Source: Patescibacteria group bacterium (GTDB lineage: Bacteria > Patescibacteriota > Patescibacteriia > UBA10025 > JAHIVO01). Taken from it: a DNA stretch of 64,000 bases. The notes beneath the pieces are model-generated. The model worked only from the letters and a program-made list of their open reading frames with translations. It had not been told where the DNA came from and searched no databases. The translations under genes and the position numbers were made by a program. Each line of letters opens with the position of its first letter. The stretch's first letter is position 1. Where the stretch lies: contig JBAZKE010000001.1 in assembly GCA_041650915.1 (NCBI GenBank), positions 547,097 through 611,096 on the forward strand, in the 5' to 3' direction. Below, in pieces: positions 28,981-37,768 of the stretch.

Positions 28981-30102
28981 CTAGGATGGGACAGCAAGAC
29001 TGTACGTACCATCCTCATTTTTTTTGAATTTTGTTTTATCCGTAAGAGCAAGATGAATCGTATTTTTTTTAACGATTCTTTGTTCGAGCACTTTCTCAAC
29101 AAGCTGCGATCGAGTTAACGATTCGCTAGATCTATTGAGAATGTCAATCAGTACATTGGAAACAACGCCAGGTTTATAACCCCACTCTTTCAGTGCATAG
29201 ATTCCTCGTCCGACGAGAACATATCTGCTGTTGAGAATAAGTTCATTGTGCACCGTGGGCGGATAGGCTTTACGGGTATCAAATTTGACTTCGTTTATTT
29301 TTTGAGCAATCTCTGTAAAGTGCATTGGTTTCCCATGCCGCTTTAAAACCAGATAAATTTTATCATTCATTCTTTTTGGAACAATGCTGCCCCATTCCTT
29401 CAACCCAAATTCATCAAATGGATTTCTTGATATACTATTGCTCATATTCAAGTATGACGTAACAGCTTCCTCGGTAAGCAACTGCGGATTATGTTTAAAT
29501 AAATCTGTTTCCTTAAATTGCGAAAGAATCGAACTTATTGTTGCCGGCTTGCCATTTTTTGCGATAGTATCGAAGAGCGTCTTAATAGAATCTCTTATTA
29601 AATGTATCGGGGCATGAGAAAGCTGCCAGGATTGCTTAAAAACTTCATCGGGTCTTATAGTTTTAAATTTCTTTTTTAAAAGTTCTGAAATAACAAATAA
29701 AATATTTTGCCGGTTCATTTGGCTGTCGCCTACGACCTGTAAAAGTTCAGCGAGCAGATCGTTTTCTTCCATGGCCGCACCGTGTTGTTCGAGAACCGAA
29801 TAAACAGTATTTTCGATCGAAGCGATAAGTTCATTGAAGTTTTTAAGCTGGCTAATTTTTTGTATAGCGGTTTTTTCAATTTGACGAATTCTTTCCCTGG
29901 TAACTTTATAGGTCGCACCGATTTCTTCGAGAGTCTCTTTTTCTTTCCCGAGTAATCCGAATCTGCGACGAAGAACATCTTCTTCGCGTGTAGTAAGGGC
30001 CTTTAAGAGCTGAGAGACGGTATCGCTTGGATTGAACTGCTCGATTTGATTTGTTTTTTTACTGGAGATAACCTTATCCAGTATTGAATTTCCCTCTTCC
30101 AT
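28981..30102 (-). CDS. Putative transcription factor: N-terminal sigma-70 region 4 (4.1-4.2 HTH) and a C-terminal HARE-HTH-like winged helix.
   Basis: Residues about 35-90, DTVSQLLKALTTREEDVLRRRFGLLGKEKETLEEIGATYKVTRERIRQIEKTAIQKI, closely resemble RpoD region 4. The C-terminal KIYLVLKRHGKPMHFTEIAQKI...NSRYVLVGRGIYALKEWG resembles the HARE-HTH of the RNAP delta subunit and restriction enzymes. Confidence 0.5.
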   Translation of the reverse strand: MEEGNSILDKVISSKKTNQIEQFNPSDTVSQLLKALTTREEDVLRRRFGLLGKEKETLEEIGATYKVTRERIRQIEKTAIQKISQLKNFNELIASIENTVYSVLEQHGAAMEENDLLAELLQVVGDSQMNRQNILFVISELLKKKFKTIRPDEVFKQSWQLSHAPIHLIRDSIKTLFDTIAKNGKPATISSILSQFKETDLFKHNPQLLTEEAVTSYLNMSNSISRNPFDEFGLKEWGSIVPKRMNDKIYLVLKRHGKPMHFTEIAQKINEVKFDTRKAYPPTVHNELILNSRYVLVGRGIYALKEWGYKPGVVSNVLIDILNRSSESLTRSQLVEKVLEQRIVKKNTIHLALTDKTKFKKNEDGTYSLAVPS

Positions 30103-30266: not shown

Positions 30267-31172
30267 TTAAATTGTTTTTTTTCGGTTTATAAAATTATGC
30301 CACACAATAAGAAATGGGCTTGCTACAAATATAGAAGAGTACGTTCCGACAATAATACCTACAATGAGGGCTAATGTGAAATTCGCTATAGATTGACCGC
30401 CAAATAAGTAGAGAGCAAGTAAAACAAGCAGAGTTGTTAATGATGTGTTAATTGATCGGATAAGTGTTTGATTAACGCTTTCATTGACTACTTCTTCAAA
30501 AGTTCTTTGGTAGCTAATTTTTAGACGTTCACGTATGCGATCGTAAACAACGATTGTATCATGAACGGAAAATCCTAATATAGTGAGAATTGCGGTAATA
30601 AAAAGCATATCGATTTCCGTGTTGAAAAATTTTCCCATGATTGCAAAAAAACCAATAACGATGGTGATATCATGAAGAAGTGCGAGGGTCGCGCCAAATC
30701 CGTAAACCCAGGATTTCACTGCTCCACTTGCTACTTTTCGAAACGCGAATGAGATATACAGTATGATAAAAATGAGTACTAATACAATTGCAATGATAGC
30801 CCGATTACGGAGCCCTCGTCCGATAGTCGGACCGATTGATTCAAAGCTCTGTTCTGTTACGGATCCGTATTCCTGGTTCAGGTTTTCCAAAATAATTTCT
30901 CGTGCAGAATTATCGATTTCCCTGAGACGCAGCGTCATATCTGTTTCACCGATGGGTTGAACGCGAACAGCTCCATATTGAAGCTTATCGACAGCTTCCT
31001 CGACCGATTGAGCTGCAGGCCGGTCTTGATTGAATTTAACCTGCATGAGAGTACCGCCAGTAAAATCAATGCCAAGTTTCAACCCTCCAGACAAAATCGC
31101 AACTATACTTGTAGCAATCATGATACCGGAGATGGTAAACCAAATTTTTCTATTTTGAATGATTTTAAACAT
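30267..31172 (-). CDS. secF: Protein translocase subunit SecF.
   Basis: GIDFTGGTLMQVKF opening and six TM helices, with the SecDF C-terminal domain. Confidence 0.85.
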   Translation of the reverse strand: MFKIIQNRKIWFTISGIMIATSIVAILSGGLKLGIDFTGGTLMQVKFNQDRPAAQSVEEAVDKLQYGAVRVQPIGETDMTLRLREIDNSAREIILENLNQEYGSVTEQSFESIGPTIGRGLRNRAIIAIVLVLIFIILYISFAFRKVASGAVKSWVYGFGATLALLHDITIVIGFFAIMGKFFNTEIDMLFITAILTILGFSVHDTIVVYDRIRERLKISYQRTFEEVVNESVNQTLIRSINTSLTTLLVLLALYLFGGQSIANFTLALIVGIIVGTYSSIFVASPFLIVWHNFINRKKTI

Positions 31173-32853
31173 TTGTACTATTCAGCTTTGATTTTAGTGC
31201 AGGATTTGACCAGCTAAACCAGTGTGGATGTTTTTCGAGCCATTGTGATACTGAAAGTCGCAAAAAAGTTCTGGTAATTGTAATTGCTGAAAACATACTC
31301 ACGACGACACCAATGCCAAGTGTAATTGCAAATCCTTTCATGATACTTGTACCGAACCACGCGAGAATAATGCAGGTGATAATACTTGAAATATTTGAGT
31401 CTCGTATGGATGGCCAGGCGCGATTGAAACCTTCTTCTACTGCTACTTTAAGGGGCTTCCCCGTACGTAGCTCTTCACGGGAACGCTCAAAAATCAATAC
31501 ATTAGCGTCTACTGCCATTCCAATTGATAGGATAAATCCCGCAATACCCGCGAGCGTAAGAGTTATCGGAATCAGCTTAAAAAGGGCAAGAATCAAAAGT
31601 GCGTAAACGATGAGCGCCAATACCGATAATAATCCAGGCAGGCGATAGTATATAATCATGAACAGTGCGACGAGTATAAGCCCTACCAACCCCGCGAAAA
31701 AACTTTTTTGGATTGACTGCTCTCCGAGCGTAGCTCCAATATTTTGTTGTGATACGAGCGTAATCGGTACTGGCAGTGCTCCAGCATTGAGCCGCTGTGC
31801 GAGTAGCTTAGCTTCTTCAAGAGAAAAACTACCGGAAATGACTGCATTTCCATCACGAATAGGTTCATTGACTCGAGGCAGTGAAATTGGAGAGCCATCA
31901 AGGTATATGCCAACAATTTTATTGACATTGCGTTCCGTGATTTGTGAAAATAATTCCTTGCCTTCCGTATCGAATTCGAGTGATACCTGTGGTTCGTTTG
32001 TATTCGGATCAAATGCAACGGCAGACCGGCTAAGATTTTTTCCCGAGAGTTCGGTATTAGCAAAATCTGTATACCCTTCGGTTGATTGCTTGGAAAAAAG
32101 TATATGGCTCGCTTGCGCCTGGTCACCATCAATTGCTGTTTTTTTTATGATGTGGTAGCCAAACTCTGTTTCAACAATCTGCGGATAGACTTCACCAATT
32201 ATAGCTTGGTCAAAAACAGTATTTGCAAATTCTGGCACCATCATATCGCGTGTGAAAAAACCGAGATCTCCGCCTCGTTGTTCGCCAGTATCAGCATCTT
32301 TGTTTCCTGGATCTTGGCTATATTCATTAGCGAGTGCACCAAAATCCGCACCGGGAGCTGTTGCGAGTGCGAGTACACTCTCAGCTTGCTTTTTTGATTC
32401 TTCATTAAGGGTGATTATCGCAGTTTTTTCTTCTTCTGTTGGCTCAACAGTCACTTCTTCTTTAAATTCGAGCAGCGGGGTCTCTCCTATCATTTGAATA
32501 GCTTCAGAAATATTGGTGATGCCTGCAAGTTCAACAATGATGCGCCATTGGCTTCCCGCTTGATTTGTCTGAACAAAAGGTTCCGATACGCCGAAAGCAT
32601 TTACCCGATTTTCTATGACATCACGCACGCCCTCAAGCGCGGCCGCCTTGTCGCTTTCTTCAATTTGTGAGGTGTCCGCATCATATACGAGGTTGGTACC
32701 ACCGAGTAAGTCAAGCCCGAGGTGCACTTTTACCTCACGAAAAAAAGTGCCAATCTTGATATCGGGTCCACTCGGATAGTCAATAAATCCAGCTACAACT
32801 GTTAATACAACGATACCTGCAAATGTAAGCCAAACTTTCTTACGCAAAGTCAT
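31165..32853 (-). CDS. secD: Protein translocase subunit SecD with an embedded parvulin-type PPIase-like domain in the periplasmic P1 region.
   Basis: The SecD core is present (LGLDLLGGTNLVY; C-terminal six-TM bundle). Residues about 135-260, ...ALATAPGADFGALANEYSQDPGNKDADTGEQRGGDLGFFTRDMMVPEFANTVFDQAIIGEVYPQIVETEFGYHIIKK..., match the PrsA/SurA parvulin signature. Confidence 0.8.
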   Translation of the reverse strand: MTLRKKVWLTFAGIVVLTVVAGFIDYPSGPDIKIGTFFREVKVHLGLDLLGGTNLVYDADTSQIEESDKAAALEGVRDVIENRVNAFGVSEPFVQTNQAGSQWRIIVELAGITNISEAIQMIGETPLLEFKEEVTVEPTEEEKTAIITLNEESKKQAESVLALATAPGADFGALANEYSQDPGNKDADTGEQRGGDLGFFTRDMMVPEFANTVFDQAIIGEVYPQIVETEFGYHIIKKTAIDGDQAQASHILFSKQSTEGYTDFANTELSGKNLSRSAVAFDPNTNEPQVSLEFDTEGKELFSQITERNVNKIVGIYLDGSPISLPRVNEPIRDGNAVISGSFSLEEAKLLAQRLNAGALPVPITLVSQQNIGATLGEQSIQKSFFAGLVGLILVALFMIIYYRLPGLLSVLALIVYALLILALFKLIPITLTLAGIAGFILSIGMAVDANVLIFERSREELRTGKPLKVAVEEGFNRAWPSIRDSNISSIITCIILAWFGTSIMKGFAITLGIGVVVSMFSAITITRTFLRLSVSQWLEKHPHWFSWSNPALKSKLNSTNV

Positions 32854-32941: not shown

Positions 32942-34342
32942 CTACTCCTGCACGAAAACTCTTGCGCCAATTGGCGTAGCATTATAAAGCCATTCAGCGT
33001 TGGGATACGAAATATTTACACAGCCATGGCTCATTCGGTGCCCAAAATTATTATGCCAATAAGCACCATGGAGCAGTCTTGAGCCGTCGAATCTCATGTT
33101 CCAGAGGGTATTCGGAAGGTAGTAATCCGGTCCGGAATACAGTTTACTGAAAATCTTTTGAGAAATCGTGAAATCACCCGGGAGAGTTGGCGTGCCGGGA
33201 AGCCCGGTGGAAACAAGGAATGTATTGACCAATTCATCGTTATCAAACGCCCACAATCGTTGCTCGGAAAGGTCAACCAGAATTTTATCGACAATGCCAT
33301 CGCCATTTTTACGTCCAGGGACGGCAAGAATTTCGCCATAACCATCTTTATCAATATCGCCTGCAGCGGGAAATATACCGCCTCGAAATTCTGATTCGTA
33401 CGGAAATAAATCATTCTTTAATCTGCCATTTGCTTCAAAAACTTTTATATGAGGGCCGCCGCCGCTGTTAGCTGCCACAATAATTTCATCGTATCCATCT
33501 GCATCCAAGTCTCCGGCGGCAACGTTAACTCCCCTGGTAAATGAATCAGGGAACGCTTTAAATTCAGCGATGATATAATCTTGTTGAACATTTACGATTT
33601 TTATCCAAGCGACATCGCCGGTTTGAACGGCAAACACCAATTCATCACTTCCTCCGTTTACTTCAGCCGAGGCGATGCTTACTCCTCCGGTAAATTCAGG
33701 ATGGAATGGAAAAATATTGGTAGGAAGTTTCTCGCCAAATCTATTAAAAGCGTACACACGAGGTTCTACGCCCGCCGATGGTGCAATTATGATCTCAGGT
33801 AATCCGGCTGCGTCTATATCAGCGACGGCAATGTTGATGCCGGATTTAATCGCAGGATCGAGTGCAAAGAAACCCGGAGTAAAGATTGGCTTGCCATATC
33901 GGTTAAATATCCTTATGTGTGATGCACCATCCGACTTTGGAGCTGTGATAATTTCAGAAAAACCGTCGCCATCCAGATCAGCACATGCTATATTTACCCC
34001 TCCTTTAAAATTTTGTTCATAAGCAAAAAAGCCGGGAGTAAATTTTGGATTTCCAAATGCATCAAAAACTCGAACTTGTGGTCCTCCGCCCAGACCTGCA
34101 CCGAGTACTATTTCTTCATACCCATTACTGTCAAGATTACAAACTGCAATTGAAGCTCCTCCCTGAAAATTGTGCGCGAATCCTAAAAAAGCCCTTTCAA
34201 ATGATAGTGGGTGTGTACTAAAAATTTTAACTTCGGGGCTCCTGAAATCCGTAGCGTACGTGCTCAACGGTAATATAAGAAGAAGGGCTGTGATAAATAT
34301 CGCACACCCTAAGTATATCGTATTTAAGCTAATTTTACCCAT
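32942..34342 (-). CDS. Secreted FG-GAP/VCBS-repeat beta-propeller fused to a C-terminal YkuD-type L,D-transpeptidase domain.
   Basis: N-terminal signal/TM. There are six or seven repeats of the form ADLDGDGFSEIITA, GDLDADGYDEIIVA and GDIDKDGYGEILAV. The C-terminal HGAYWHNNFGHRMSHGCVNIS is the LDT catalytic His...Ser-His-Gly-Cys motif. Confidence 0.65.
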   Translation of the reverse strand: MGKISLNTIYLGCAIFITALLLILPLSTYATDFRSPEVKIFSTHPLSFERAFLGFAHNFQGGASIAVCNLDSNGYEEIVLGAGLGGGPQVRVFDAFGNPKFTPGFFAYEQNFKGGVNIACADLDGDGFSEIITAPKSDGASHIRIFNRYGKPIFTPGFFALDPAIKSGINIAVADIDAAGLPEIIIAPSAGVEPRVYAFNRFGEKLPTNIFPFHPEFTGGVSIASAEVNGGSDELVFAVQTGDVAWIKIVNVQQDYIIAEFKAFPDSFTRGVNVAAGDLDADGYDEIIVAANSGGGPHIKVFEANGRLKNDLFPYESEFRGGIFPAAGDIDKDGYGEILAVPGRKNGDGIVDKILVDLSEQRLWAFDNDELVNTFLVSTGLPGTPTLPGDFTISQKIFSKLYSGPDYYLPNTLWNMRFDGSRLLHGAYWHNNFGHRMSHGCVNISYPNAEWLYNATPIGARVFVQE

Positions 34343-34471: not shown

Positions 34472-35008
34472 CTAAATTACCGACTGAATTTTTTTCTGCA
34501 ATGATCCTATTGTTTTCTCGATTTTCGGCAAGATTGTTTTATCAGCAAATGATCCGCCATTAGTAAAAGCATTTTTAGCATTCGGAAAGTATAATATTGG
34601 CATAATAATTTTCATTTCCAAATACGTTAAAACGGGGATAAAATTCTCTACTGCTCTTGAACCGCCAAAAGAACCCGAAGATACGCCACAAATTAAAATT
34701 GGTTTATTCTTAAACTCATTTTTTGATCGGTCAAATAAAAGTTTTAATTCACCTGGATATCCGCGGTTATATTCCGGCATTATTAGGAAATAGGCATCAG
34801 CGGCCCGCAATATCAAACGGAGTTTTTTTCCTTCACGATTTTCTTGCCACGGAGGGACTGTAAACGTAACTGGAAATTTTTTTACGTCGAGAATTGATGC
34901 GGATATTCCTTTCCTATTTTTTAGAATATCATATACCGCATGAGCAACTTTTTCTGATTGGCTGCCTTTTCTTCCCGTTCCAAGGATTACTAAGATAGAA
35001 ATTTTCAT
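34472..35008 (-). CDS. NADPH-dependent FMN reductase / flavodoxin-like oxidoreductase.
   Basis: MKISILVILGTGRKGSQSEKVA...PEYNRGYPGELK are the flavodoxin-like fold motifs. Confidence 0.55.
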   Translation of the reverse strand: MKISILVILGTGRKGSQSEKVAHAVYDILKNRKGISASILDVKKFPVTFTVPPWQENREGKKLRLILRAADAYFLIMPEYNRGYPGELKLLFDRSKNEFKNKPILICGVSSGSFGGSRAVENFIPVLTYLEMKIIMPILYFPNAKNAFTNGGSFADKTILPKIEKTIGSLQKKIQSVI

Positions 35009-35026: not shown

Positions 35027-37768
35027 TTATTTTTTTAATTGCTCTAGTATATTGCCGAGCTCATTTATTTCACTTCCATACGTACCCCAATCCCCCATTC
35101 GCTGTGCTTCAATTGCATTTTGGTAGTGTTCAAGCGCCTTCGATACCAATTCTTCTGAAGTTGAACTATCTTCAGCAGGCTGTTCTGGCATTATTGCGAT
35201 TGCTGCGGAAGAACCACTTCCAAAAATTTGATTTAACGCCTTTTCTAATGTTTCATCCATGGCAATTCGACTTTCATAAGCAACGATTACGCGCTTAAGC
35301 TCAGGAATTTTTCCGCCTTCAGCCCTGAGGTAAAGAGGTCTGACATACAGGAGAGATTCTTCTATCGGTATCACGAGCAAATTACCTTGGATAACTTCAG
35401 AGCCGTGCTGATCCCAGAGTGATATCTGCTTTGATATATCCGCATCCTGGCTAATGCGATTTACGATCTGTTTTGGCCCGAATACAAGGGTTTGTTTCGG
35501 AAAACGGTAAACAACAAGTTCACCGTAATGATCACCGTCAGCACGGGCAACTATCCAAGCTGACAAGTTATCCTTGCTCCTCGGCGTATACGGCAGCATG
35601 AGAATAAACTCCTCCGTTTCTTCCTGCGGAAGCTTCATAATCATATGCCGCATCATCGGATCTGTTTGTTCATCACTGACTTGCGGAACTTCCCATTTAT
35701 CTTCCTTGTTATAGAATACTTGCGGTTGCTCCATATGGTAGGTCTCATAGAGCATTGTTTGGTACCTAAAAATATCTTCAGGATATCGAATATGCTTTTT
35801 TAAGTCTTCTGGCATTTCTTGGATCGGCTGAAATACTCCCGGAAATATTTTTGCATAGACTTGAATAATTGGATCACCAGGATCAGATATATAGAAATCC
35901 ATGCTGCCATCGTACGCATCAATTACTGCTTTCACCGAATTTCTGATGTAGTTGATAGTACCATAGCTTGGAGTTGCTGTGTTGTATGCGGTAGCGATTT
36001 CCGGGGCGATATTCGTTACATATTCAGCATAGGGATATGCATCGCCAGTCGTATATGCGTCATATATCCACTTAAGCTTGCCGCCTTCTGTTATAACGAG
36101 ATATGGATCGCTATCGAGATTAAGAAATGGCACGACAGTTTTCATTCTCTCAGTAATATTCCTGCGCATGAGTACCTTACTTTCTGATGAAATGTCATTT
36201 GAAAGAAAAATTTTCAAGGAACTGAATCGGGCTGCAAAGAGCGCCTTTTTTAGTATTGAATCAATCGCAATGCCGCTATCACCGATGTATTCACTGTAGA
36301 CATTCTCTTCTCCGGATGGGTAATTAAATTCATCAGCTTTAGTATTTACAAAAACATAATCCGACGATAATTCTCCAAAATATATTTCAGGCCTGGTTAC
36401 CTGGATTGTATCTACGTTCGATACCGGCGGCAAATCTTTTACAAATAAGAGCGGTAAGCCTTCCGCCGTCACTTCATTGACGGGGCCGAGTGCAACGCCG
36501 AATCCATGGGTAAAGGTAAGCCGCTCATTGATAAACGTTGCAGATGGTAAGCTCGCCGTATTGAGCTCCCGCGGAGACAGCATTGTTTGCCGGTATTCAT
36601 CATCAATTACATACCGGTCATTGTCAACTGAAACGAAATCGTAGTATGTTCGTATTTCCTGTAATTGTCCGAAAGTATCGAGTAAAGGCCCCCTGTCCCA
36701 TAGTCGGATATTCTTGATTGTCAACTCATTATTTTTAATATCGTCAGATGTGAGTTGTATGGAATCGGACGTTAATTCCCTTTTTATTACAGTATCGATT
36801 TTATACGCTTTTCGGGTTGCGGCAATGTTTTTTTCGATGTACTCTGTTTCTTTAACGAGCTCATTCGGCAGTACTATAAGTTTTTGTATGATCATTGGGT
36901 AGATAGGAATTCCGATAATTGCAACTGCAAAATATATAGCAATCGAAGTAATAAGTACCTTCCTAATACTGGTAAAAATATTGATAAAAAAAAGTACAGC
37001 GGTAATGGCAGCAATACCGCATAAAATCCACAGGAGCGGAAGACGAGCTACGACGTCTGTATAGCTGGCCCCGGTAAATGGACCAGTGGTAGAGTAGAGC
37101 AAATCAGTCATGCCGACGAAATACGTTTTCGATGCGAGCAAGCTAAACACAAAAAAGAGCAAAAATGAAAAGTGGGCTGAGACGTGGCGTTCAATTTTTA
37201 AAGAAACCCGCTTAAGAGAAAACATGCCACGAGAAAGGTACAGAATTCCCGCGCCTATAAGTGACAATATGAGTGCGCTCATGAGGTAAGAATAGATAAG
37301 CTTAACGAAAGGTAAAACAAAAAAGTAAAAAGAAATATCCCGTCCAAAAAGCGAATCTTCAGTTCCAAATGGCACGCGGTTAAAAAATTGGAGTACTGAT
37401 TGCCACGATGTTGACGCGGCAATGCCAGTTAAAAGCGCAATAACCAGAGCAATGGGGATAAGAATGCGAAAGGTAAGCTTACCAATTTCAATGCCTCTAA
37501 ACCTGAACAAGCTACTGTTAACCGCGTTTGAATATTTTGCAGCAATTTTTTTTGCGATATATACATTAACGAGCAACAGCCCAAAAAAAAGTACGGAAAC
37601 CGTAATACCAAGAAGGAGTTTTGTTAAAACTATTGTTGTAAACAAGGACGAATACCCCTCTGAAGAAAACCATATCCAATCAGTACTAAATGAAATAGTT
37701 GCTGGAAGAACACCCAGTAAAAATAATAAAATGATCACTAATGTGGCAAAACGTTTCCCTTTTCTCAT
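35027..37768 (-). CDS. UPF0182-family large membrane protein.
   Basis: 913 aa. Seven N-terminal TM helices start with a TDWIWFSSEGYSSLF motif and are followed by a roughly 650-aa soluble domain. The assignment is from recall of family architecture. Confidence 0.5.
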   Translation of the reverse strand: MRKGKRFATLVIILLFLLGVLPATISFSTDWIWFSSEGYSSLFTTIVLTKLLLGITVSVLFFGLLLVNVYIAKKIAAKYSNAVNSSLFRFRGIEIGKLTFRILIPIALVIALLTGIAASTSWQSVLQFFNRVPFGTEDSLFGRDISFYFFVLPFVKLIYSYLMSALILSLIGAGILYLSRGMFSLKRVSLKIERHVSAHFSFLLFFVFSLLASKTYFVGMTDLLYSTTGPFTGASYTDVVARLPLLWILCGIAAITAVLFFINIFTSIRKVLITSIAIYFAVAIIGIPIYPMIIQKLIVLPNELVKETEYIEKNIAATRKAYKIDTVIKRELTSDSIQLTSDDIKNNELTIKNIRLWDRGPLLDTFGQLQEIRTYYDFVSVDNDRYVIDDEYRQTMLSPRELNTASLPSATFINERLTFTHGFGVALGPVNEVTAEGLPLLFVKDLPPVSNVDTIQVTRPEIYFGELSSDYVFVNTKADEFNYPSGEENVYSEYIGDSGIAIDSILKKALFAARFSSLKIFLSNDISSESKVLMRRNITERMKTVVPFLNLDSDPYLVITEGGKLKWIYDAYTTGDAYPYAEYVTNIAPEIATAYNTATPSYGTINYIRNSVKAVIDAYDGSMDFYISDPGDPIIQVYAKIFPGVFQPIQEMPEDLKKHIRYPEDIFRYQTMLYETYHMEQPQVFYNKEDKWEVPQVSDEQTDPMMRHMIMKLPQEETEEFILMLPYTPRSKDNLSAWIVARADGDHYGELVVYRFPKQTLVFGPKQIVNRISQDADISKQISLWDQHGSEVIQGNLLVIPIEESLLYVRPLYLRAEGGKIPELKRVIVAYESRIAMDETLEKALNQIFGSGSSAAIAIMPEQPAEDSSTSEELVSKALEHYQNAIEAQRMGDWGTYGSEINELGNILEQLKK

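Follow-up and report, generated by a model that had tools for sequence, protein, structure and literature searches.

The 64 000-nt stretch of DNA from a Patescibacteria group bacterium analyzed here, to which we refer as the window, encodes on its minus strand the genes secD and secF, and the SecD protein carries a parvulin-type domain in its P1 region (Table 1). A SecD with an embedded parvulin-type peptidyl-prolyl isomerase (PPIase) domain in P1 had been proposed in an initial annotation made from the sequence alone, and the profile search bears this out, calling a rotamase domain between the Pfam domains SecD_1st and SecDF_P1_head. The host protein is identified as SecD by the equivalog model TIGR01129 (NCBIfam; 389.4 bits against a cut-off of 244.4, spanning aa 45-531), and it is 100% identical to a protein (P0001) named SecD of Patescibacteria group bacterium. 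P1 base (PF21760, aa 75-133), P1 head (PF22599, aa 266-362) and the C-terminal domain of five transmembrane (TM) helices (PF02355, aa 366-532) were all found, and an AlphaFold2 (AF2) model places a helix at aa 3-23 that covers TM1. The secF ATG and the secD stop overlap by 8 nt at 31165-31172 (ATGTTTAA), which implies translational coupling of both subunits. Since D449 of SecD is aligned with D340 of Thermus thermophilus SecDF (TtSecDF), reportedly the membrane Asp of the proton relay (Tsukazaki 2011), and is invariant among 53 homologues, and since secF adjoins and overlaps secD, this SecDF would be of the functional type; secD-secF is a genuine operon of a Patescibacteria (Candidate Phyla Radiation, CPR) bacterium. 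The window SecD shares TM1, P1 base, P1 head, TM2-6 and the proton-relay Asp with the SecDF structures of T. thermophilus and Deinococcus radiodurans (3AQP, 5YHF, 5XAM; phmmer E = 8e-80, Foldseek E = 3e-24), and its full-length AF2 model matches 5YHF, 5XAN and 3AQP in Foldseek. It differs from TtSecDF in that SecD and SecF are two polypeptides from separate adjacent genes, and in about 94 extra residues that form the parvulin at the entry of the P1 head. By homology with TtSecDF, the region from TM1 to about aa 375, including the insert between TM1 and TM2, would be extracytoplasmic.

Table 1. Features of secD and secF in the window; positions count from the first letter of the window, residue numbers are those of SecD
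Feature	Position	Strand	Details
secD open reading frame (ORF) with embedded parvulin domain	31165..32853	-	562 aa; from ORF list, TIGR01129 and the 100% identical P0001
TM1, N-terminal transmembrane helix VWLTFAGIVVLTVVAGF	32785..32835	-	aa 7-23; from sequence and alignment with 3AQP
P1 base, N-terminal part (Pfam SecD_1st), terminal strand LLEFKEE	32455..32631	-	aa 75-133; aligns to TtSecDF 30-116
Inserted segment	32056..32460	-	aa 132-266, ~135 aa; from translation and alignment to unfused SecDs
Long helix, α1 N-terminally extended by ~10 residues, in the canonical place of β1	32362..32436	-	aa 140-164; DSSP of AF2 model, predicted local distance difference test (pLDDT) about 90
Parvulin core, α1 to β4	32137..32406	-	aa 150-239; matches profile positions 33-113 of 116 (PF13616) and 15-96 of 97 (PF00639)
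D181, putative catalytic hydrogen-bond network	32311..32313	-	Asp in 45/53 homologues
Strand β4, FGYHIIKK with H234	32140..32163	-	T229 just upstream
Predicted displaced strand β1′, ASHILF with H250, in a hairpin with β4	32095..32112	-	from conservation and AF2
P1 head subdomain (Pfam SecDF_P1_head), intact	31768..32058	-	aa 266-362; 93.8 bits; aligns to TtSecDF from 158 on
SecD/SecF C-terminal membrane domain, TM2-6	31258..31758	-	Pfam, aa 366-532; contains D449
D449, aligned with TtSecDF Asp340	31507-31509	-	residue-by-residue alignment
secF	30267..31172	-	301 aa; directly after secD; TIGR00966, 294 bits against a cut-off of 160

The inserted domain scored 70.4 bits with PF13616 Rotamase_3 (aa 150-239; cut-off 22.5, E = 2.5e-19) and 57.3 bits with PF00639 Rotamase (cut-off 21.7, E = 3.3e-15), and parvulins of the PDB match its core in phmmer searches at E-values of 1e-10 to 1e-4. 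A chance match can be dismissed at such scores. The peptide quoted in the initial annotation is encoded verbatim, and its coordinates (32070-32455, about aa 134-261) are right, although on the minus strand. On either side of the insert the protein aligns with TtSecDF (phmmer against the PDB; aa 40-131 with residues 30-116, aa 267-545 with residues 158-436), and between these anchor points lie 135 residues in the window SecD versus 41 in Thermus. The nearest unfused Patescibacteria SecDs (e.g. L021, L020, L018 and L025) have about 25-28 residues between LLEFK and TxL(S/T)G (with a gap of 28 aa between the Pfam domains in L021), and the SecDF_P1_head profile begins at position 19 in unfused SecDs too. 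Because of this short loop and the same start of the P1-head profile in unfused SecDs, the P1 head can be regarded as intact, with ~108 residues added in the linker loop; the segment is an insertion, not a replacement, and does not align as a normal P1 head. In fact, the parvulin sits in a short variable loop between the last P1-base strand (LLEFK) and the first P1-head strand (TxLSG). Unrelated inserts were seen in the same loop (LEFK to TxLSG) in other lineages: a Ser/Thr-rich stretch of ~60 aa in L023 (662-2344), an acidic 50-aa stretch in L027, and an uncharacterized insert of ~200 aa in SecDs of Chloroflexota/Dehalococcoidia (L050, L073, L055). SecD seems to gain domains preferentially in this P1 loop, which tolerates inserts in general.

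The fusion recurs in many related proteins. In a search of 5.8 billion proteins, the 120 homologues that scored best, with identities as low as 57%, all bear PF00639/PF13616 together with the SecD domains; they stem from NCBI, JGI, ENA and Logan assemblies and, where named, are called 'protein translocase subunit SecD' of Patescibacteria, Kerfeldbacteria or similar. For the distribution we scanned one genome per GTDB species and classified the SecD loci that ranked among the top 80 in similarity; beyond these, fused SecDs may also occur in lineages farther away. One parvulin is present in 7 of these (Kerfeld-, Buchanan- and Moranbacteria, unnamed Patescibacteria), two parvulins in 13 (Magasanikbacteria, Parcubacteria group, a Peregrinibacteria SecDF and others) and none in about 60 (Nomura-, Saccharibacteria, Taylor-, Ryan-, Wolfe-, Davies- and Gottesmanbacteria, Chloroflexota, Gastranaerophilales). 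In a rough neighbor-joining tree of the SecD core the fused forms fall together, with single, double and a few unfused forms interleaved. Searching the representatives with the insert only, we mostly obtained unrelated multi-parvulin proteins (Planctomycetota, Eiseniibacteriota), since scores are summed over domains; the two-parvulin SecDs were also recovered. A neighboring parvulin gene as the source of the fusion was considered and rejected, as neither the 3 kb around any of the 80 SecD loci nor the 64-kb window contains one. As a side observation, several SecDs that cluster with Patescibacteria carry labels such as 'uncultured Gammaproteobacteria', 'Lysobacteraceae' or 'Candidatus Binatia' (L004, L010, L015, L017-L019, L023, L026, L029, L032 and L062; the L032 record spans 1.0 Mb); the organism labels of these records of metagenome-assembled genomes look unreliable.

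We mapped the insert on Par10 and Pin1, whose reference sequences were checked only for internal numbering. In this mapping we take D181 to correspond to Par10 C40 and Par14 D74, H250 to Par10 H8 and Pin1 H59, H234 to Par10 H84 and Pin1 H157, and T229 to Par10 T79 and Pin1 T152; L197, M205 and F209 presumably equal L49, M57 and F61 of the proline pocket of Par10. Both the network (Cys/Asp, His, His, Thr/Ser) and the hydrophobic proline pocket are present, with residues conserved at 85-100% in 53 homologues: H234 is found in 53/53, T229 is Thr in 44/53 and Ser in 9/53, and F209 and L197 are each kept in 52/53. Pin1-type phosphate-binding basic residues are absent from the SecD parvulin in the mapping on Par10 and Pin1. 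As judged from alignment, the residue set would fit an active, non-phospho-specific parvulin. As to the near-verbatim PrsA/SurA parvulin signature of the initial annotation, the catalytic-type residues are retained by alignment and conservation; the domain is not a verbatim PrsA or SurA parvulin, for its first strand is displaced C-terminally, probably by circular permutation.

The canonical parvulin order β1-α1-α2-α3-β2-α4-β3-β4 is not found in the SecD parvulin, either by profile or in the model. In 184 non-SecD domains the consensus of β1 is ASHILI, which bears the first catalytic His; at the corresponding place the SecD parvulins have the family consensus xxAIEAYN, which is amphipathic and helical, not strand-like. 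The upstream TAIITL was considered as a degenerate β1 and rejected, since the family consensus AIEAYN is helical and a single unbroken helix runs through the region in both AF2 models described below. A near-invariant A-S/R-H-I-L-F motif trails the core (H250 in 50/53, I251 in 53/53 and L252 in 51/53 homologues), with H250 lying 16 residues past H234. Two AF2 models were obtained, one of the full-length protein (pLDDT 79.7) and one of the domain only (aa 126-272; pLDDT 94.4, predicted template modeling score 0.83), and their topology was read from DSSP strings. Both predict a strand at 232-242, two turn residues and a strand at 245-254 (hairpin pLDDT 98). In the parvulin sheet β4 is flanked only by β3 and β1. 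As ASHILF is predicted to form a hairpin directly off β4, whose only sheet neighbors are β3 and β1, it would come to lie in the β1 slot. When aa 243-258 were placed ahead of the core, Rotamase_3 scored 83.5 instead of 72.1 bits and Rotamase 66.1 instead of 61.3 bits, and the Pfam match of this un-permuted window construct widened to profile positions 14-113 (Rotamase_3) and 1-96 (Rotamase). Un-permuted constructs reach the start of the hidden Markov model (HMM) in 59% of 66 single-type SecDs, versus 2-3% for shuffled or reversed prefixes. By the model and by sequence logic, the parvulin in SecD is probably a natural circular permutation with a complete fold.

SecDs with two parvulins speak for this topology as well. 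We compared 16 of them (L007, 2974-5007; L008; L010-L017; L019; L026; L044, 865-4062; P0265; P0241; P0200), of which L044 and L013 have the two-parvulin unit within a fused SecDF. The order is the same in 16/16: helix and core of the outer unit up to β4, then ASHIL(I/V) with a complete canonical unit, then a trailing β1-like strand (e.g. YQVARLLV, RASAILF), then the P1 head. The Rotamase profile is matched from position 1 (1-95) in the inner unit (unit 2), versus from position 15 in the single forms. Unit 2 scores 78-114 bits and keeps both His in 16/16, whereas the outer unit is clearly degenerate (11-67 bits), its β4 His being lost in 14/16; the His of the trailing strand is lost in 12/16. 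Across 81 sequences the trailing-strand His tracks the outer β4 His (61/6/3/11; Fisher p = 3e-7, phylogeny ignored), but in the double forms not the His of the directly preceding unit 2. In single forms the His-to-His spacing ranges from 16 to 28 residues, i.e. the length of the hairpin loop is variable. The simplest reading of these alignments would assign the trailing strand to the outer unit, whose β4-β1′ hairpin would have a canonical parvulin nested in it. Closest to the insert are tandem-parvulin proteins (SurA P1-P2; the Bacteroides fragilis PPIase 8HM3/8HM4), with E = 5e-11 and Foldseek TM scores of 0.66-0.68, and the alignment passes from β4 into the β1 of the next domain with the same 16-residue His-to-His spacing. 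This equal spacing is consistent with a tandem array having been captured or duplicated out of phase. In the tandem-parvulin proteins, however, each β1 belongs to a following full domain, while in single-parvulin SecDs only the P1 head follows the trailing β1.

Several explanations compete with a permuted parvulin in a genuine SecD. That an error of assembly, binning or gene calling joined a prsA-like gene to secD is practically out of the question: the sequence does come from a metagenome-assembled genome, but the insert lies midway in a single continuous ORF with SecD sequence on either side, no stand-alone parvulin gene is near the surveyed loci, and the same architecture, met with independently by different studies in >120 protein clusters and 20 GTDB species, refutes this reading. 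More serious is the proposal that there is no permutation and that ASHILF is the vestige of a lost second parvulin, now part of the P1-head sheet or of a connector, with the parvulin core either lacking β1 or borrowing the P1 strand LEFKEEVTV. The existence of double forms would suit such a history, as would the 16-residue spacing shared with successive domains of tandem-parvulin proteins, and some of our results weigh against a permutation. The topology was read from DSSP strings; the mean gain on un-permutation is modest with a local canonical-parvulin HMM (4.4 bits versus 1.9 for shuffles), and with this HMM the gain of the window sequence itself is no better than that of controls, which makes the test weak for this sequence. 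Moreover, a simple two-residue-turn register would set H234 and H250 on opposite faces of the sheet. Among PDB entries Foldseek with the domain model gives significant matches to 8HM3/8HM4 only (TM 0.66-0.68) and to no single-domain parvulin (Par10, Pin1, PrsA), whereas phmmer gives 27 such chains; the non-sequential topology might account for this gap. On the other side, a strand two turn residues past β4 must fill the β1 slot (pLDDT 98), the 10-residue helical extension parts the P1 strand from α1, and the trailing-strand His and the outer β4 His co-vary. We thus regard the absence of a permutation as improbable and keep to the permuted arrangement.

Whether the permuted domain would act as an enzyme is a separate question. 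The insert might be non-catalytic. Comparable to SurA P1 or the PpiD parvulin, it could give the P1 head an additional surface for substrate binding or chaperoning, or brace that head structurally, and the conserved His would be kept solely for fold stability. The parvulin of PpiD is inactive, and two conserved His are no proof of catalysis. The outer unit of the double forms is degenerate by HMM score and without its His in 14/16, and in Mycoplasma the proteins Mdp436 and Mdp489 are essential despite lost catalytic residues. Active-site mutants of Bacillus subtilis PrsA lose PPIase activity without a clear secretion defect; PPIase-dead PrsA still supports secretion (PMC12445088). Set against this, the single forms keep the whole D-H-H-T network and the proline pocket (L197, M205, F209) at 85-100%, and in 16/16 double forms one unit keeps both His. 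A purely non-catalytic role is a possibility that we take seriously but consider rather unlikely; the residues would fit an active prolyl isomerase.

Among known systems, the Gram-positive lipoprotein foldase PrsA (4WO7, 6VJ6, 1ZK6) is likewise a parvulin that is tethered to the membrane outside the cytoplasm, and it shares the catalytic-type residues; the job proposed for it, the folding of newly exported proteins, is alike. The best NCBIfam match of the parvulin is indeed the PrsA model NF002846 (E = 1.7e-10), but the alignment is confined to the parvulin and its 40.9 bits stay far below the cut-off of 361; PrsA models in general score about 41 bits against cut-offs >340, so that the protein is not a PrsA. 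Unlike PrsA, the window SecD has no lipobox and no N/C chaperone domain, SecD itself provides the tether, and the strand order is permuted. Pfam finds no SurA_N-family or PrsA NC domain in it, which places it outside SurA and PpiD as well, and SurA chains of the PDB match it only via their parvulin domains. The resemblance to PrsA and SurA noted in the initial annotation concerns the parvulin domain; as a whole the protein is no homologue of PrsA or PpiD. The 64-kb window, to which the check for a separate prsA or ppiD extended, contains no second parvulin gene. In a freshwater survey, PrsA-type annotations occur in all CPR classes (PMC9166423), which speaks against a replacement of PrsA; because of these annotations, and because the genome was read in the 64-kb window only, such a replacement is offered as a hypothesis.

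Parvulin chaperones at the SecYEG exit are also known from Escherichia coli. There, PpiD/YfgM associates with SecYEG (PMC9643414), and SurA binds the holo-translocon, AlphaFold docking its two parvulin domains on the P1 head of SecDF (PMC9987972). These associations of PpiD-YfgM and SurA are non-covalent and transient and need large SurA_N-type domains, whereas the parvulin of the window SecD is covalently part of P1. In Mycoplasma pneumoniae the PrsA-like lipoproteins Mdp444/436/489 form a dome on SecDF-SecYEG, Mdp444 crosslinks to SecDF, and substrate density touches the sole catalytically intact PPIC domain. This likewise concerns a genome-reduced, wall-less or monoderm-type bacterium with PPIC physically coupled to SecDF, and of its several PPIC domains all but one have lost the catalytic residues. 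The Mycoplasma components, however, are separate, very large lipoproteins in a trimeric chamber, not a domain insertion into SecD.

From these comparisons a mechanism can be sketched. The extracytoplasmic P1 of a Patescibacteria SecD has acquired a parvulin-type PPIase domain, most probably in permuted order: the extended α1 comes first, the chain runs through β4 (FGYH234IIKK), and ASH250ILF would then fold back as a hairpin into the central β1 slot, which would restore the network D181-H250-H234-T229. In sister lineages a second, canonical parvulin would be nested between β4 and the trailing strand. Proton flow, as described by Tsukazaki in 2011 and Furukawa in 2017, reportedly swings the P1 head of SecDF, which binds the emerging polypeptide and pulls it from SecYEG. 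This pulling by SecDF through a proton-driven P1 head is summarized in PMC9987972. As the parvulin hangs on the P1 head, it would be held beside the SecYEG exit; sitting at the root of the head, it would move along with it, adjoining the channel exit, and could hold unfolded segments and catalyze prolyl isomerization during release of the chain. Its role may be that of a translocon-tethered holdase/prolyl isomerase acting on chains drawn out by SecDF, i.e. a covalent equivalent of the docking of PrsA, PpiD or SurA. We consider it likely overall that this genuine secD-secF pair encodes a SecD whose P1 contains an inserted, most probably permuted parvulin serving as such a holdase/isomerase. Of this, the data show the domain architecture, where the insert sits, how it is conserved and distributed among clades, and that catalytic-type residues are kept; the permutation in space, the enzyme activity and the part played in secretion are proposed on top of that. 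A farther-reaching proposal is made only tentatively and may well prove wrong: a catalytically active permuted parvulin on the moving head of SecDF, pulling and isomerizing in one polypeptide and possibly replacing PrsA, with the hairpin as a repeated docking site for a nested second parvulin. If true, the parvulin fold would here have its first natural circular permutant, and the protein would be a Rosetta-stone fusion, indicating that the contact between parvulin and P1 head that has been suggested for SurA, PpiD and PrsA is functional and of ancient origin.

The genes around secD-secF lie on the same strand. Directly downstream of secF (28981-30102) is a gene for a 373-aa protein with sigma-70 region 4 (aa 32-83) and HARE-HTH (aa 249-276) and no other domain, an architecture that is unusual for a sigma-like protein. 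Upstream of secD, the product of 32942-34342 is a secreted protein in which FG-GAP repeats are joined to a YkuD L,D-transpeptidase domain at the C-terminus; it could plausibly be a client of the Sec/parvulin machine in the envelope. Further upstream follow genes for an NADPH-dependent FMN reductase (34472-35008) and a 913-aa UPF0182 membrane protein (35027-37768; 926 bits).

The initial annotation was not aware of any description of the fusion, and we likewise found none, nor any report of a permuted parvulin, in 8 million full texts. The co-occurrence of SecD and parvulin is common among public Patescibacteria proteins, where it is visible in automated Pfam annotation although the proteins are named only as SecD; it is present in databases but not discussed. 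SecD and parvulin are themselves known kinds; what we rate as new is the apparently permuted, nestable parvulin topology within SecD.

Two machines that other bacteria keep as separate proteins are joined in one branch of the ultrasmall Patescibacteria. How proteins leaving the Sec channel reach their folding factors is still debated on the basis of short-lived complexes, of crosslinks and of docking by AlphaFold (SurA-SecDF, PpiD-YfgM-SecYEG, the Mycoplasma dome). A conserved natural fusion of parvulin and P1 head is independent evolutionary evidence for a prolyl isomerase/chaperone at precisely that spot. With about 340 aa, P1 and parvulin form a compact single-chain system for structural and biochemical work. 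The apparent permutation with its nested second domain would be a new topology for a small, intensively studied enzyme fold and a clean example of a permutation tied to tandem duplication. For the Patescibacteria, the fusion is a pointer to economical envelope proteostasis in minimal-genome organisms.

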